Below are positions 4,024 to 23,121 of a stretch of DNA of 24,687 nt, one piece after another. Both the position numbers and the translations under genes were made by a program. The stretch is from a virus (lineage: Duplodnaviria; Heunggongvirae; Uroviricota; Caudoviricetes), in the IMG/VR virus record IMGVR_UViG_2711768042_000001, positions 1 to 24,687 of that record; one strand, 5' to 3'. Under the pieces are notes generated by a model. The model was not told the origin of the DNA, made no database searches, and worked only from the letters and a program-made list of their open reading frames with translations. Every line of letters starts with the position of its first letter. The stretch's first letter is position 1.

Positions 4024-4100
4024 TGGCGTGGCATGCAGGATTCGAACCTGCGACCAACCGCTTAGAAGGCGGTTGCTCTGTCCAACTGAGCTAATGCCAC
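4024..4100 (-). tRNA. tRNA-Arg (anticodon UCU, decodes AGA), phage-encoded
   Basis: Reverse complement folds as a canonical cloverleaf: acceptor GTGGCAT/ATGCCAC, D-arm GCTC-AGTTGGACA-GAGC, anticodon arm ACCGC-CTTCTAA-GCGGT (anticodon TCT), T-arm GCAGG-TTCGAATC-CTGC, discriminator G and encoded CCA. Differs from E. coli argU as I recall it (from memory, not a comparison). Confidence 0.9.
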
Positions 4101-16422: not shown

Positions 16423-19400
16423 TGCCGTTCTATCCTGTATCTGAATCAAACAATAACGGATTTATTTCTGCTGGTCTCGCCATTCCTGAACCTGATGAAC
16501 AGAGTTTTGATGTGCATCCGCCAGAAGGTAAGAACCCTGAACCTCGTCCCAAAGAGCCTTCATTGCTTGCCGCAGCAATACGACAGAACAATATTCTGGC
16601 TGGTTTTTTCCGTCCTGCCAGACAGTTTGAACCGGTCGAGGGTTATAACCCATATGCTGATAAAAATGAGTTGCACGGTTATGAATACTGGGGGGCGAAA
16701 TTTGCAGATTCCCGATCGCCAGAGGAAACGGCGTGGATTAAGCAGCAGATAGATGATGAAAATGAAGATCGGCGTTTTATCTCTGAAGCAGGCTTAGCTG
16801 GTGGAATTGCCAGTGCAACAGCGATGCTTTTTGACCCGGTTACTGTTGCGTCAATGTTTATCCCAGGTGCTCAAGGAGGGGCACTGGCGCGTATTGGCTC
16901 ACAGATTGCGATTGGTGCTGCCGGTACTGCATTAAGCGAGGTTGTACTGAATAATCAGCAAATAACACGCTCATGGGGTGAAAGTGCCGCTCACGTTGCA
17001 GCGGGTGCGATGATGAGCGGCGTGTTTGCCAGTGCTGGTGTTGCGCTTTCGCCATCCGTCCGGGCTGCAGCCACACGTGAGGTTGCTGATGCTCTTGATA
17101 ATATGAGCATTACATCAGCGACTGACAGGGCTGCCGCTTCGCTTTCCGATGGTGGTAGTGTTGGTGCTATGAAAATTGATACAGCGACTCTGGATGATTT
17201 AACCCCTGTTTCCGGTGGGTGGGTTGGAAAGGCTGCATGGAAAGCAGGGAGCTATCTTACTCCTTTGACAAGGTTAATGGAGTCTCCGTCCAAGACGGTG
17301 CGAAAAACAACGCTGGAGTTAGCCGAAAATAATTTCACCCTTAAAGGAAATGAAAGGGGGATTGAAACACCGGTAGCTGTAGAAACCCGTACACGTGGAT
17401 GGCAGCGTGAAGAAGCTGCTGTTGTTGTCGGAAATAAACAGGCATACGCAAAGTATAAAGCTGATGGTGGTGACATGAGTTTTGATTCATTTCGTCAGCA
17501 GGTTGGGAATGCTATGCGAAGCGGTGATGTGCATGCTAATCCTGTTGTTCAGGAAACGGCGCAGGCGATGCGAACTGTATTAAATCGGGTGAAAGTTGAA
17601 ATGCAAAAGCTTGGTTTATTGCCGCCAGATGAAGAACTGAAAGCATTAGGCCAGGCAAGCTATTTCCCACGCATATATAAAGTTGGAAAAATAATCAGTG
17701 AACGCGATAAATTTCGACGTATTTTGGTTGACTGGTGGTCGAGAGGAAATAAAACACTGGATCCTGAGGATGCTGAAATTGCAGCGGATATCGTAATTAA
17801 TAAAATTACTGGTGCTAAGGTTCCACAGGATTTTGTCAGCGTATTTTCTGTAAAAGCCGCAGGTAGTACGAAAGAAAGAACATTAAATGTTCCTGATAGT
17901 CTTATCAGGGATTATCTTGAAAGTGATGTGAATTACGTGCTGCAACGTCATATCCGTGAAGCGGCAGCAGAGATTGAGTTGACGAGAACATTTGGCAAAC
18001 GAACTATGACTGAGCGTCTGCAATTAATTGAGGACGAATATGACAGTCTGTTACGGGAAGTGCCTGAAAAAATAAAGGCGAAATATGACGAAAGTGTGGC
18101 AAATCTGAAAGCACGTTATGAGAGCAATGGTGAAGTTGTTCCTCAGGGTAAACTCGATTCATTAATGCGAAAGTACGAAAAGGAATTACGGAAAGAACAG
18201 TCCAGACTTTCAAAATCAAGAGCAAATGATCTCAGAGACATAACAGCATTACGCGATCGTCTTGTTGGTACATATGGTATGCCTGATGATCCGTCTTCGT
18301 TTTTTGTTCGTGCTGGCGCTTTTCTGCGGGATGTGAACTTCACGACCAAACTCGGTGGAATGACAGTATCAGCTATTCCAGATCTGGCCAGAGGGGTTAT
18401 GGTTAATGGTTTCCGTAACACCATGAAAGGCTATGCTTCTCAGATATCCCAATCACCGGCATTTAAGGCCAGCAAAGAAGAGATGTTGAAGATGGGGATT
18501 GGATTGGAAACTGTACTACATTCACGTTCTCGTGCAATTGGTGATCTTGTTGACAGTTCTTCCAGGACAACAGCAGTCGAAGCAGGAATGGAGCGAATTA
18601 CTGATGCCTTCGGCAAGCTGACACTCATGGATCGATTTAATGACATAAACAAATCCATGAACGGAATGCTCACGTCAGACGGTATTTTGTCTGGTGCGTT
18701 TTCTGCACGTCGCATGGCAAAACTCGGTATCAACGACAATATGGCGGCGCGTATTCGCAGTGAGTTCGAGAAACATGGTGAGGTAATTGATGGATGGCAC
18801 ATTGGTAACTTTGATAAATGGGACGATCAGTACGTTGCCGGAGTATTCCAGTCAGCGGTTCTGAAAGACGTTAATAACACTATCATCACCCCCGGTATTG
18901 GTGACACACCTTTATGGGCGAGTACTCCAATGGGGCGAACGATATTTCAGTTTAAATCATTCACAACGGCTTCATACAACCGTGCGCTACTTGGTGGGTT
19001 ACAGGAAGGAACTGCGCAATTTTATTATGGCACTGCATTTCAGATTGCTCTTGGCTCACTGGTCTATGCGCTAAAAGAAGCATCGAAAGGGAAAAATGTT
19101 GACTGGTCACCAGAGAAGCTGGTGCTTGAGGGTATAGATAGATCCGGTATTCTTGGGCCATTGATGGAATATAACAACATGGCTGAAAAGGCTACTGGTG
19201 GTGCTGTTGGGCTGGGGGCTTTATTTGGCACTGGCACACAGTCTAGGTATGCCAGTCGTGGATTCGTAGGATCTCTATTCGGACCGTCATTTGGTCTTGC
19301 GGATAGCATCATTGATGTGACCGCAGGAGTGTTGAATGGTGATGCCGGTGATCGTATTGTGCATAATGTCCGAACCCTGATACCAGGCAATAACCTGTTC

Positions 19401-19445
19401 TGGATTGCGCCACTAATAAACCAAGTGGATCCGGTGATGCGTTAA
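16422..19445 (+). CDS. large internal virion/DNA-injection protein (gp16 position)
   Basis: 1007 aa, ATG overlaps upstream stop (TAATG); last gene of the + strand structural block before the accessory locus. Confidence 0.6.
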   Translation: MPFYPVSESNNNGFISAGLAIPEPDEQSFDVHPPEGKNPEPRPKEPSLLAAAIRQNNILAGFFRPARQFEPVEGYNPYADKNELHGYEYWGAKFADSRSPEETAWIKQQIDDENEDRRFISEAGLAGGIASATAMLFDPVTVASMFIPGAQGGALARIGSQIAIGAAGTALSEVVLNNQQITRSWGESAAHVAAGAMMSGVFASAGVALSPSVRAAATREVADALDNMSITSATDRAAASLSDGGSVGAMKIDTATLDDLTPVSGGWVGKAAWKAGSYLTPLTRLMESPSKTVRKTTLELAENNFTLKGNERGIETPVAVETRTRGWQREEAAVVVGNKQAYAKYKADGGDMSFDSFRQQVGNAMRSGDVHANPVVQETAQAMRTVLNRVKVEMQKLGLLPPDEELKALGQASYFPRIYKVGKIISERDKFRRILVDWWSRGNKTLDPEDAEIAADIVINKITGAKVPQDFVSVFSVKAAGSTKERTLNVPDSLIRDYLESDVNYVLQRHIREAAAEIELTRTFGKRTMTERLQLIEDEYDSLLREVPEKIKAKYDESVANLKARYESNGEVVPQGKLDSLMRKYEKELRKEQSRLSKSRANDLRDITALRDRLVGTYGMPDDPSSFFVRAGAFLRDVNFTTKLGGMTVSAIPDLARGVMVNGFRNTMKGYASQISQSPAFKASKEEMLKMGIGLETVLHSRSRAIGDLVDSSSRTTAVEAGMERITDAFGKLTLMDRFNDINKSMNGMLTSDGILSGAFSARRMAKLGINDNMAARIRSEFEKHGEVIDGWHIGNFDKWDDQYVAGVFQSAVLKDVNNTIITPGIGDTPLWASTPMGRTIFQFKSFTTASYNRALLGGLQEGTAQFYYGTAFQIALGSLVYALKEASKGKNVDWSPEKLVLEGIDRSGILGPLMEYNNMAEKATGGAVGLGALFGTGTQSRYASRGFVGSLFGPSFGLADSIIDVTAGVLNGDAGDRIVHNVRTLIPGNNLFWIAPLINQVDPVMR

Positions 19446-19466
19446 TCAATATTTATTGGAGTTCTT

Positions 19467-19994
19467 TCAATGGCTGTTTATGGCTTCTAAAGAAGCTTCT
19501 GCACTTATCGGCAAAGCAATAGTATCCTTGTTAGATGTGCTATTGCTTTCCAGAACTATGGAAATCCAATCCTCTTGGTTTTCATTAATTGTGCTGACAG
19601 CCATGATAGCATTCAAATCATTTTTATATATTTCTGATCGAATAAGACCTTTCCTGAATAATTTAGTTAAGTTTTCAGCTATCGACATCGCACGAATGCT
19701 AACTTTACTAAGCTCAATTGCGTCACTACCTGCGACTTTGGCGTGTTGAGAAAGAGCCATCAAAGCTATATGTGAAAATGTTTCTTCTTTTGAAAAACCG
19801 TTACTTAAAGACATGAGTGATACACCAGCTCCGTATGGAGTGAGTTTATATCCTGATACATTCAGTGCATGCTCTACAAAGGTAAGATCATCAGTTGTAG
19901 AAACATGCATATCGTTACTTTTTTGTTTTTTTGCAATAAATAAAAAAACAAAATTAATAATCACGATGCCGACGATGATTAAGAAAACTTCCAT
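19467..19994 (-). CDS. membrane-anchored accessory protein (single N-terminal TM); superinfection-exclusion candidate by position
   Basis: ATG 19994 with GAGG 7 nt upstream; N-terminus EVFLIIVGIVIINFVFLFIA is one TM helix; AT-rich; sits directly after the injection gene on the opposite strand, where P22 carries sieA. Confidence 0.6.
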   Translation of the reverse strand: MEVFLIIVGIVIINFVFLFIAKKQKSNDMHVSTTDDLTFVEHALNVSGYKLTPYGAGVSLMSLSNGFSKEETFSHIALMALSQHAKVAGSDAIELSKVSIRAMSIAENLTKLFRKGLIRSEIYKNDLNAIMAVSTINENQEDWISIVLESNSTSNKDTIALPISAEASLEAINSH

Positions 19995-20014
19995 TGCTTT
20001 TCCTCACAATAACA

Positions 20015-20029
20015 TTACCTTAAAGGTAA
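20015..20029. promoter_or_regulatory. palindromic motif TTACC-TTAAA-GGTAA, site 2 of 6
   Basis: Exact string 20-35 nt upstream of the 19994 start on the minus strand. Confidence 0.4.
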
Positions 20030-20054
20030 TATTTTGTGCTAATGTGATCAAGTG

Positions 20055-20453
20055 TTAAGTGTATACCTCCTGTTGCTCAGTGGTGATTTTACCCGGCAAC
20101 ACCTTTTTAGCTTTGTGCGGGTTAACCACATGGCCTTTAGTCCAGTACTCGTAGAGCACATCGTCACACTCTTCCTGATACTGGATTACCTTGTCGCGGA
20201 TTTCAGGGCGGACTTTGTTAGGGCTGATGCTGTTCAACCAAGCTGCCAATTTTCGTAAAGCCATACAAATCATGGCTTGCACCCCACCGGCAGAAGGTAT
20301 GGTGATTTCCACCATACCCTTCGAGAAGCGTTGAGAAATCTTCTTATGTTGAGATTTCCAGTCTAGCCCCATTCCCTCAACGATAGGTTTCATTGGGGTA
20401 TACGGTTCGCCGTTGTGATTGACAACATAAAGCTCTGCGCCGTGGAATGGCAC
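20055..20453 (-). CDS. antirepressor N-terminal-domain-like protein (P22_AR_N-like), possibly truncated
   Basis: N-terminus FHGAELYVVNHNGEPYTPMKPIVEGMGLDWKSQ...VIQYQEECDDVLYEYWTKG has the style of P22-antirepressor N-domains (from memory). Starts with GTG, no clear SD, only 132 aa, so may be a remnant. Confidence 0.45.
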   Translation of the reverse strand: MPFHGAELYVVNHNGEPYTPMKPIVEGMGLDWKSQHKKISQRFSKGMVEITIPSAGGVQAMICMALRKLAAWLNSISPNKVRPEIRDKVIQYQEECDDVLYEYWTKGHVVNPHKAKKVLPGKITTEQQEVYT

Positions 20454-20590
20454 GTTGATAGTAGTGACAAATTTGAAACATCGCTGGTTGTAAGCCAGCA
20501 GATGCTCGTTATTTTACGTCGCGGCACAATTTCTCGCTGCTGGCTCTTTTACACACATTAACCAAATATGGTTGATTTTAATATTTATAC

Positions 20591-20886
20591 GCGCTTATCA
20601 TTACCTTTGCGGTAAATTTACATTGCATTCCTCTTGTGCCATAGTAATCGGGCACTGGCAAAATCCAGTGTCGGGATTGGTCTCCCGGATTACTAAGTGG
20701 CGCATACCACGCCAGACGTGGTTTTTTTATGCGTATAGCACAGTCATGCCAGAATTATGGTGGGCTGAATGGGGGTCCGAAAGGACGCCGGTACCACTTA
20801 GGCCGGTAAGACCAACTCCGTTCAGTTCACCACCATCTGATTGGTCTCAGCGGTGGTGATGTAATTCGCTAAGTGGAGACGCCATC
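20591..20886 (+). promoter_or_regulatory. structured ~295-nt leader upstream of the AntA-like gene (copy 1 of an inverted pair)
   Basis: About 85-90 percent identical to the reverse complement of 23122-23412; contains TTACC-TTTGC-GGTAA (20601-20615), two stem-loops, an intrinsic terminator, then complementary sites AGACCAA (20809-20815) and TTGGTCT (20841-20847) before the RBS GGAG. Confidence 0.7.
20651..20727 (+). ncRNA. candidate C4-like antisense sRNA, copy 1 (SL1 CACUGG-CAAAAU-CCAGUG; SL2 CGGGA-UUGGUC-UCCCG; terminator CCACG-CCAGA-CGUGG then U7)
   Basis: Three consecutive hairpins ending in a U-run, about 77 nt; SL2 loop UUGGUCU is complementary to AGACCAA in the downstream leader. 5' end not determined. 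Confidence 0.45.
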
Positions 20887-21543
20887 ATGAACGCTCAACT
20901 CATCCCCGTATTCAACGGCACTATATCTAACGAAACAGCCCTACTTTGTAATGCCCGCGATCTGCACGCTTTTTTAGGTGTTAAAAAGGTGTTTGCAGCA
21001 TGGATTACAAATCGCATTTCAGAATACGAATTCATTGAAAATCAAGACTATATTTTGCTTTCCAATTTGGGAAAGCAAACATCTGGTAGAGGCGGCCACA
21101 ACCGCAAAGAGTACCACCTCACCCTTGATACAGCCAAAGAGCTGGCGATGGTCGAGCGTAACGAAAAAGGTCGCCAGATACGACGCTACTTCATTGAATG
21201 CGAGAAACGTTTAAGACAACAAGAAACAAAGGTGGAGAAGGTCTTGTCAGGCTTCATGCCAGCCATTATGGAGGCGATCAAGCTGGAAGACAAAAAAGAA
21301 TACAGCGCCCAACTGAAGCCCGGCTACCGCAGCCTGATTCATTCGCCGTCTGGTGTTCTCGGCCTGACGGAGAACTCACTGCTGATGAATTTGCTGAACC
21401 AGTTACAGGAAGACGGGCATGATGTATCGGGCGCGGCAGCGGAGCTGACCACCATGTTCTGCTACATCGTCGGTGTGAGCAAATGCCTGCGTGATATCCA
21501 GACGCACGCGGAGTACATCAACGACAAGGCAGGGTTCTTCTGA
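20887..21543 (+). CDS. antirepressor, AntA-type N-domain plus shared C-terminal domain
   Basis: ATG with GGAG 8 nt upstream; N-domain ...[16 protein letters not shown]...[30 protein letters not shown] matches the AntA pattern; the C-terminal 80 aa are near-identical to the C-terminus of the 22435..23121 gene. Confidence 0.75.
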
Positions 21544-21592: not shown

Positions 21593-21593
21593 A

Positions 21594-21617
21594 GGCCGCT
21601 TTCGCGGCCTTGTTTTT
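21594..21617 (+). terminator. rho-independent terminator (GGCCGC-UUUC-GCGGCC then TTGTTTTT)
   Basis: 6-bp GC stem with tetraloop and T-run directly after the AntA-like gene. Confidence 0.7.
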
Positions 21618-21678: not shown

Positions 21679-22218
21679 TTACCAAAACTTGTACCACGGG
21701 GATTTATCCTTCAATGGACAATCCTTCCATCGTGTGGCCAACCATTCATATTCTTTAAAATATGTGTTTATGTTTTCTTTTTCTCTAATAGCTTGTATAA
21801 GAGGTAGCGCAATCTGATAGTTATTTACAACGGAGCTGTAAAATACTTCCTTAATCATGGTCTCATCATAAGTTTTCCGCTTCACGCTCACAGCCATGCG
21901 TTCGTAGAAACCTAGACAGTAAATTATTTCTCTCTTCTCTATCTTTTCTTCATCCGTAAGATCAGCCTGCCCATTGCTTGGATACATATAAGAGCGGAAT
22001 GATTTGTTCGATTCGTGAATGCGGCGCATAGTAGATAGGCCTTTCTTATAATCTACATCAAACCTGCTTTCACCAAGGAATACTGAAGTGTGTACTTTTC
22101 TCGCTGTATTTACATTATAAATAATAGTAGCGATAGCTATGAACAAGCCAAGCGAAACCGCGACTGCACTTACGATTTGAGCCACAGCCATGGCAAATTG
22201 CATTTCTTCACTTAACAC
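21679..22218 (-). CDS. membrane-anchored accessory protein (N-terminal TM helix), unknown function; exclusion/abortive-infection candidate
   Basis: GTG 22218 with GGAGA 6 nt upstream (alternative ATG at 22203); TM segment FAMAVAQIVSAVAVSLGLFIAIATIIY; own terminator; AT-rich; lies between the two convergent antirepressor cassettes. Confidence 0.6.
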   Translation of the reverse strand: MLSEEMQFAMAVAQIVSAVAVSLGLFIAIATIIYNVNTARKVHTSVFLGESRFDVDYKKGLSTMRRIHESNKSFRSYMYPSNGQADLTDEEKIEKREIIYCLGFYERMAVSVKRKTYDETMIKEVFYSSVVNNYQIALPLIQAIREKENINTYFKEYEWLATRWKDCPLKDKSPWYKFW

Positions 22219-22409: not shown

Positions 22410-22677
22410 AGGCACATCCCTGTGCCGCCGCCCGTCAGAAGACCCCTGCCTTGTCGTTGATGTATTCCGCGTGGGTCTGGATATCACGCAGGCATTTACT
22501 CACACCGACGATGTAGCAGAACATGGTGGTCAGTTCCGCCGCCGCGCCCGATACGTCGTGCCCGTCTTCCTGTAACTGGTTCAGCAGATTCATCAGCAGT
22601 GAGTTCTCCGTCAGGCCGAGAACACCAGACGGCGAATGAATCAGGCTGCGGTAGCCGAGCTTCAGTGGGGCGCTGTA
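22410..22677. repeat. inverted repeat arm B (antirepressor C-domain coding plus 3' flank)
   Basis: Reverse complement about 94 percent identical to 21301-21568. Confidence 0.8.
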
Positions 22678-23121
22678 GGTTTTGTTCTCTACCTTCATTG
22701 CCTGCATCACTGCTGATGCTGTGGCGCTGGCTACCTGGTCGGCAACCATCTTTATGCGTTCTTCCTGCGGGAGCGAGTTTTTAATGTAACTTCCGGTGCG
22801 GCGGATCTGAGGAAGAACCTCACCTGTAACCCATTTACGAAAGCGGTAGGGGGTAGTGCCTGGTGTCACCGCATCGCGGCAGCGGAGGATCAGTGTGTAG
22901 AGGCCTGACTCGTTGATAATATTGGTTTCGCCTTGACGGCCTAAGTTAAATTTAGCCCTTTCATCATCATCAAGAGATTTTATTGACATAGTGGGGTTTG
23001 TCAGTTGAAGAGCTTTAATAACGTCTTTGGCAACAAACCAAGGATTTCCATCAATAACAATGGCTCGAATGGTTGCTTCTGATTCAAAATGAAAAACAGA
23101 TGGGGTTACGTTAGCAGTCAT
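22435..23121 (-). CDS. antirepressor, Bro-N-type N-domain plus shared C-terminal domain
   Basis: ATG 23121 with AGGTGAT upstream (track ORF extends to 23274 but that N-terminal extension overlaps the conserved leader). Bro-N pattern: IDGNPWFVAKDVIKAL...NESGLYTLILRCR...YRFRKWVTGEVLPQIRRTGSY. Confidence 0.75.
   Translation of the reverse strand: MTANVTPSVFHFESEATIRAIVIDGNPWFVAKDVIKALQLTNPTMSIKSLDDDERAKFNLGRQGETNIINESGLYTLILRCRDAVTPGTTPYRFRKWVTGEVLPQIRRTGSYIKNSLPQEERIKMVADQVASATASAVMQAMKVENKTYSAPLKLGYRSLIHSPSGVLGLTENSLLMNLLNQLQEDGHDVSGAAAELTTMFCYIVGVSKCLRDIQTHAEYINDKAGVF

Follow-up and report, generated by a model that had tools for sequence, protein, structure and literature searches.

A probable pseudogene fragment of a P22-type antirepressor gene at a non-homologous joint within a divergent control region in a phiV10/TL-2011b-like prophage

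The window analyzed here (the whole 24,687-nt stretch of Caudoviricetes DNA from IMG/VR record IMGVR_UViG_2711768042_000001) aligns with Escherichia phage TL-2011b at 97% identity over 81% of its length and represents a phiV10/TL-2011b-like genome segment. On its minus strand, an open reading frame (ORF) of 132 codons plus stop occupies positions 20055-20453, starting with GTG (20453-20451) and ending with TAA (20057-20055). The original prediction, which supplied this frame, had described an N-domain-only antirepressor ORF of 132 aa with a GTG start, and profile searches confirm that description. The product matches Pfam P22_AR_N (PF10547; E=1.3e-44, residues 2-109 against profile positions 4-114 of 115), PHROG 524, 'anti-repressor Ant' (7e-70, aligning with positions 13-136 of the 317-position profile), and PHROG 14366, a profile of stand-alone P22_AR_N proteins of ~122 aa (7.3e-45). 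For the window, the protein collection lists a shorter gene call, a 112-aa product initiated at an internal ATG (20393).

Downstream on the same strand, a 175-aa ORF (19467..19994; PHROG 21690) encodes a protein with an N-terminal hydrophobic membrane anchor and has a Shine-Dalgarno (SD) sequence, GAGG, of -6.2 kcal/mol. On the other side, an intact antirepressor module (20652..21543, plus strand) is composed of isrK (20652-20728), a C4 antisense RNA (20753-20837) and an AntA-domain gene, antA (20887-21543). The two RNAs score 65.5 and 61.2 bits in Rfam, respectively, both above the gathering threshold, and the antA product matches Pfam AntA (3.9e-26) and PHROG 377, anti-repressor Ant (4.9e-67). 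A second isrK-C4 pair (23351-23170, minus strand) leads into a Bro-N antirepressor gene; since the listed 279-aa Bro-N ORF overlaps the C4 RNA, the real start of this gene is probably the ATG at 23121 and not the listed one. In both leaders isrK and C4 lie in tandem, with all four Rfam matches above gathering, and each leader stands ahead of an antirepressor gene. Each brings the Gifsy-1 IsrK element and the P1/P7 c4 element together in a single leader, and the combination is duplicated in this phiV10/TL-2011b-like genome. In Gifsy-1, IsrK activates in trans the translation of the antirepressor AnrP (anrP) via an upstream ORF (PMC4825925). The intact operons of the window resemble this isrK-orf45-anrP module (PMC4825925) and the P1/P7 c4 immI module (Rfam RF01394, RF01695), whereas the 132-codon ORF lies outside such operons, upstream of the isrK promoter and on the other strand. 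The two isrK-C4 antirepressor modules nearby are the real regulators.

Several other features accompany these modules. The 175-aa gene and a DUF4760 gene (21679-22218, minus strand; PHROG 2284) look like accessory genes placed among the antirepressor modules and may be morons or exclusion genes. Convergent intrinsic terminators (21593-21610, plus strand; 21680-21662, minus strand) lie between antA and the DUF4760 gene. A tRNA gene (4027-4100, minus strand; 73 bits in Rfam) lies in the gap that precedes the large block of structural genes, and in related O157 typing phages a tRNA-Arg is annotated within the matched regions.

To place the ORF among antirepressor genes, we compared its DNA with full-length ant loci. 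The IMG/VR scan returned 80 loci, about 70 of which encode full-length Ant proteins (~307 aa). The best DNA match is the ant gene of CUS-3 (ABQ88384.1, 307 aa), a P22-like phage (compare the immI arc-ant module of P22); this gene encodes the same P22_AR_N domain and aligns at 97% nucleotide identity over 397 bp, covering window positions 20068-20464 only. For all full-length loci (~70, including CUS-3, TL-2011b and IMG/VR prophages), blastn similarity is confined to 20464-20068, give or take a few nucleotides, with identities of 74-98%, and in the CUS-3 alignment it drops abruptly at both ends. The sequence is thus that of an ant gene lacking both of its ends: the ant-derived segment (20068..20464, minus strand) corresponds to codons ~10-137 of a ~307-codon P22/CUS-3/TL-2011b-type gene and contains the whole P22_AR_N domain followed by about 20 linker residues.

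At the 3' breakpoint, full-length products, which read M[KT]SIATAVSTINVPFHG...TTEQQEAIKQLVMSRG..., run about 170 residues beyond TTEQQEAIKQLVMSRG. In CUS-3 Ant, for instance, whose N-terminus is MKSIATAVSTINVPFHG, the residues following ...TTEQQE are AIKQLVMSRG... and ~170 more, including P22_AR_C. The window ORF instead ends four codons past the homology limit at 20068, with ~170 C-terminal codons gone, and its TAA stop (20057-20055) belongs to the resident DNA, as part of the TTAACA -35-like hexamer in the promoter-like site of the next gene. No C-terminal half is present in the ORF, either of the P22_AR_C type or of the phiV10-group type that would bring the total to ~300 aa. Alignment with full-length P22_AR_N proteins, proposed earlier as a means of deciding whether this half is missing, therefore gives an affirmative answer, the deficit being ~170 aa relative to ~70 homologues.

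The 5' end is truncated as well, a feature that the original prediction had missed. Homology starts 11 nt upstream of the GTG codon, and the native M[KT]SIATAVS of full-length products, which begin M[KT]SIATAVSTINV, is replaced by unrelated DNA; about nine N-terminal codons are gone, together with the native ATG and ribosome-binding site (RBS). What looks like a GTG start corresponds to Val13, an internal codon in intact genes, which is GTG in 18 and GTA in 10 of 28 close full-length alleles, and the in-frame stretch upstream of it (NNEHLLAYNQRCFKFVTTIN) contains no ATG, GTG or TTG. The gene-like appearance of the frame thus results from an internal valine GTG being the first codon past an upstream stop that could pass for a start, combined with a resident stop codon soon past the 3' breakpoint. 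A start at the out-of-frame ATG at 20481 was also considered and rejected: it has no SD (-1.5 kcal/mol), the arrangement is common to all relatives, and no full-length homologue begins in this way.

Comparison with the closest phage reveals a further difference. TL-2011b Ant (YP_007001993.1, 314 aa) also carries P22_AR_N, with 83% nucleotide identity over the fragment, and at the C-terminus it has the same ~80 aa as the two intact antirepressors of the window. This common region (82-100% identical) has P22_AR_N as its N-terminal partner in TL-2011b, and in the window it is fused to AntA and Bro-N (20887-21543, plus strand, and 22435-23121, minus strand; 1984-2928 in locus L002), a distribution that points to swapping of N-terminal domains on a constant C-terminal module in this phage group. 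The constant region would be the effector part of the antirepressor, and the fragment has none of it. Furthermore, TL-2011b ant is complete and has an Arc-like repressor gene ahead of it, neither of which is true of the fragment, which also has the opposite orientation. Set against CUS-3 Ant, the copy in the window has lost not only the first ~9 codons, and with them ATG and RBS, but also the middle region and P22_AR_C (residues 138-307); neither arc nor mnt lies beside it.

The signals needed for expression are not recognizable either. The GTG codon has an anti-SD duplex energy of +1.5 kcal/mol, against a median of -6.3 kcal/mol for 18 reference genes of the window, and 96% of sampled window positions pair more strongly, in agreement with the earlier observation that no obvious SD precedes it. 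A similar observation that no clean promoter lies upstream also holds, in that a consensus scan of 20454-20600 yielded no sigma-70-like site on the minus strand; these promoter and SD scans are consensus-based, and weak or leaderless expression could escape them. The fragment has no regulatory context of its own (arc/mnt or an isrK/C4 leader), the upstream isrK and C4 being on the other strand and serving antA, and Rfam searches at the gathering threshold detected no sar-like or other RNA in 20055-20600. In addition, the strong intrinsic terminator at 21680-21662 closes the nearest upstream minus-strand genes and blocks minus-strand read-through into the fragment. Most likely, the fragment is neither transcribed nor translated to a useful level, and would be silent or nearly so.

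The inverted repeat noted upstream of the ORF in the original prediction does exist, as a perfect 9-bp match between AGCCAGCAG (20493-20501) and CTGCTGGCT (20537-20545) with 35 nt between the arms, yet it proved unremarkable. The region folds no better than shuffled sequences (z=-0.5), the two arms are not paired with each other in the minimum free energy (MFE) structure, and loci L060 and L088 have mutations in one arm with no compensating change in the other, for which reasons we rejected it as a functional RNA element.

The DNA upstream of the ORF is instead the control region of the oppositely oriented isrK-C4-antA operon, which had been overlooked. In E. coli MS 196-1 (L092), the sequence corresponding to window position 20058 is joined to that of 20557 with only 5 nt between them, forming an uninterrupted site whose flanks are 98.8% (19400-20058, left) and 86.5% (20557-20857, right) identical to the window. 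The same uninterrupted arrangement is found at paralogous modules in loci L003, L005 and L020. These sites define 20059..20556 as a 498-bp indel, consisting of 9 nt of filler, the 397-bp ant piece, and a 92-nt stretch (20465..20556) that carries the 9-bp inverted repeat and stands in place of the native ant start, RBS and promoter. The 92 nt match no ant upstream region, had no match in 50,697 phage records when searched in distant mode, and among E. coli occur only in the 45 genomes that bear the 5' junction of the fragment.

This indel splits a compact divergent control region that serves the 175-aa ORF on one side and the isrK-C4-antA operon on the other. The promoter-like site of the 175-aa gene (20014..20058, minus strand) comprises TTAACA (20058-20053), a 16-nt spacer and CAAAAT (20036-20031), and is overlaid by a perfect palindrome, ATTACCTT-A-AAGGTAAT, at 20014-20030. 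Across the indel (20600..20645, plus strand), an operator-like palindrome at 20600-20616 is followed by the isrK promoter-like site, with TTTACA (20617-20622), a 17-nt spacer and TG-CATAGT up to 20645; this site ends 7 nt before the start of the isrK model at 20652 and fires away from the fragment. The palindrome, in the form ATTACCTT-N3-GGTAAT, occurs at seven distinct sites in the window (1214, 4422, 20014, 20600, 22347, 23387 and 23767), compared to 0.04 expected by chance, and a copy lies directly upstream of the -35 element at each isrK promoter. On this sequence pattern, the seven-fold palindrome looks like a candidate operator of the prophage repressor.

The architecture of this region bears directly on the possibility, also raised in the original prediction, that the fragment is co-expressed with the downstream membrane protein as the first cistron of a two-gene operon. 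The ORF and the 175-aa gene are indeed on the same strand and only 60 nt apart, but that 60-nt spacer contains the promoter-like site, operator-like palindrome and SD of the 175-aa gene, and no promoter was found upstream of the fragment. Furthermore, in MS 196-1 and at the paralogous modules the promoter region of the 175-aa gene meets the isrK control region directly, the fragment being absent, and the 175-aa product (WP_000451652.1) is annotated both with the fragment and, in MS 196-1, without it. Given its own signals and its annotation in a fragment-free genome, co-expression is neither needed nor indicated, and we consider an operon of the two genes extremely improbable. WP_000451652.1 is a single RefSeq protein in six E. 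coli genomes.

To survey the distribution of the fragment, we examined complete E. coli genomes for its 5' junction, which is present in 45 of 5,426. The junction-bearing genomes fall without exception into three nested 3' classes: 5 share the junction of the window, with ant-derived sequence to codon ~128 and an ORF of 132 or 134 codons; 38 are cut at codon ~87 (NKVRPEIRE, followed by unrelated sequence); and 2 are cut at codon 68. The two shorter classes, comprising 40 of the 45 genomes, have lost part of the P22_AR_N domain. Taken together with the empty site, these domain-destroying cuts reveal no requirement for the product. RefSeq flags the same sequence as a pseudogene in sister genomes, so that the feature is in this sense already known; each of the ten copies inspected bears a pseudogene annotation ('incomplete; missing C-terminus'). 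One of them, MS8345_RS14300 of E. coli MS8345 ('phage antirepressor N-terminal domain-containing protein'), is the same ORF with both junctions at 98.7% identity, and relative to the RefSeq pseudogene copies the window has a single private change, R113H.

Homologues of the same size, which had been named in advance as evidence for an intact short protein, do exist. They occur with both junctions identical in six IMG/VR prophage loci (L006-L009, L028 and L060) and in four fetched E. coli genomes (MS8345, TUM9803, BCE049 and A_5), with a 134-codon allele in CE0007a/L088 and a sixth E. coli copy, P0035, seen only as a Prodigal-called protein. All of these copies share both junctions and therefore trace to one truncation event, so that they do not constitute independent evidence of an intact short protein. 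Domain-only proteins of ~120-150 aa are found elsewhere (PHROG 14366; P0048, P0106 and P0113, which have native N-termini and unrelated tails). The window ORF matches the profile of this stand-alone class and lies outside it, having no start or RBS and a size that is not conserved across independent lineages. In BCE049, the Bro-N antirepressor gene downstream of isrK-C4 is also truncated (L087 2983-3468, a RefSeq pseudogene), with an endosialidase tailspike gene immediately downstream, a further non-homologous joint within this module.

The existence of nested 3' truncations behind a single common 5' junction is the pattern expected of progressive erosion, and it raises the question of the direction of the indel. 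The uninterrupted site might be derived, with a full ant operon originally lying between the divergent promoters and later worn down by deletions; the ORF would be a pseudogene in this case too. Against such a history, MS 196-1 has the uninterrupted arrangement at this very module, and two paralogous modules (L003, L005 and L020) have it as well. Among the 30 E. coli genomes listed, at least 27 match only the resident promoter and gene start (20000-20058), with no ant sequence alongside. Moreover, the uninterrupted arrangement places both operator-like palindromes in one compact divergent control region, and the 92 nt on the 5' side do not correspond to the upstream region of any ant gene. We therefore regard an eroded operon as unlikely and favor insertion into an originally compact control region. 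The most plausible route would be non-homologous recombination during an immI-module exchange, which would have left ant codons ~10-137 in the divergent control region of a phiV10/TL-2011b-like recipient prophage, between the gene for the 175-aa membrane-anchored protein and the isrK-C4-antA operon.

The copies that retain both junctions also differ among themselves in an informative manner. A comparison of window positions 20215-20370 with loci L002, L004, L038, L060 and L088 showed that this central third of P22_AR_N is hypervariable, with several alleles at ~60-70% identity, one of them carrying a 2-codon insertion. It is also hypervariable in full-length genes, and the parts of the domain on either side of it hardly vary from allele to allele. 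The central segment behaves as a recombination cassette and could be a specificity determinant. Four central alleles (about codons 29-77) occur within identical junctions (the window type, L060, L088 and P0035), a pattern suggestive of gene conversion by intact ant genes. Double crossovers between the fragment and live ant genes would bring in intact sequence that has already passed selection, and under such import both open frames and synonymous-biased variation are expected.

The frame is open in 12 of 12 copies with both window junctions (the window, six IMG/VR loci and five E. coli genomes) and in P0035. Variants private to the truncated copies number 5 nonsynonymous to 9 synonymous, tiny counts confounded by import from functional alleles; once those present in divergent full-length alleles are removed, the ratio is 4 to 4. 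Both ratios lie below the neutral expectation of ~3.7:1, on numbers insufficient, given allele import, to indicate constraint. Open frames across four central alleles and a low proportion of nonsynonymous private variants, together with an essentially complete P22_AR_N domain and the existence of stand-alone P22_AR_N proteins (PHROG 14366 and short homologues with native starts), are also what would be seen if the ORF encoded an N-domain-only protein that is intact and expressed, with translation beginning at the GTG or at ATG 20393, and that serves as a third antirepressor or a modulator. Such a protein would have to act through P22_AR_N alone, for example as a decoy or dominant-negative form against incoming Ant, or as a DNA binder. 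We consider both its expression and this mode of action quite improbable. The fragment has no native start, SD or promoter and is insulated by a terminator; in 40 of the 45 genomes sharing its 5' junction the domain has been destroyed by the 3' cut, and a genome with an empty site exists; the C-terminal domain common to the working antirepressors of the phage group is absent; RefSeq calls the sequence a pseudogene; and import from functional genes would account for open frames and a synonymous bias.

A more specific variant, in which a free P22_AR_N, weakly expressed from the GTG, from ATG 20393 or from a promoter that the consensus scans miss, is kept as a decoy against Ant from P22-like and TL-2011b-like phages that superinfect the cell or reside with it, and protects the lysogen from cross-induction, is very improbable; if it were true, the swapping of the central segment would represent tracking of target specificity and not passive gene conversion. 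A functional P22-type Ant acts by binding and inactivating a phage repressor, and any part of the fragment in such binding would be hypothetical. A search of PDB sequences with full-length CUS-3 Ant returned no solved relative, and thus no structural guide to the repressor-binding domain, and a search of the literature for studies that dissect P22 Ant by domain gave nothing that could be applied directly.

Taken together, these data indicate that the ORF is a non-functional remnant, or pseudogene fragment, of a P22/CUS-3/TL-2011b-type ant gene, a reading to which we assign a probability of about 0.9. Of the alternatives put forward in the original prediction, that of a decaying gene left behind by module exchange is upheld by the sharp breakpoints, the empty site, the nested 3' truncations and the RefSeq pseudogene calls, whereas that of a third antirepressor finds no support in a sequence devoid of C-terminal domain, native start, SD and promoter. 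For annotation purposes, any count of antirepressors should leave out the 132-codon ORF, and the contig's recorded call of a 112-aa gene is spurious.

In itself, the ant fragment is a textbook scar of phage mosaicism and carries little weight. It does, however, mark precisely where a non-homologous joint lies in a divergent control region, and an empty site is available for comparison. Furthermore, its 397 bp, at 97-98% identity to live ant genes, could act passively as a substrate for recombination or gene conversion with co-resident or infecting phages, and this role as a patch of homology is probably its main biological effect. A dead 0.4-kb fragment that exchanges its central segment with live ant genes would thereby provide a homology patch between Lederbergvirus-like and phiV10-like phages.
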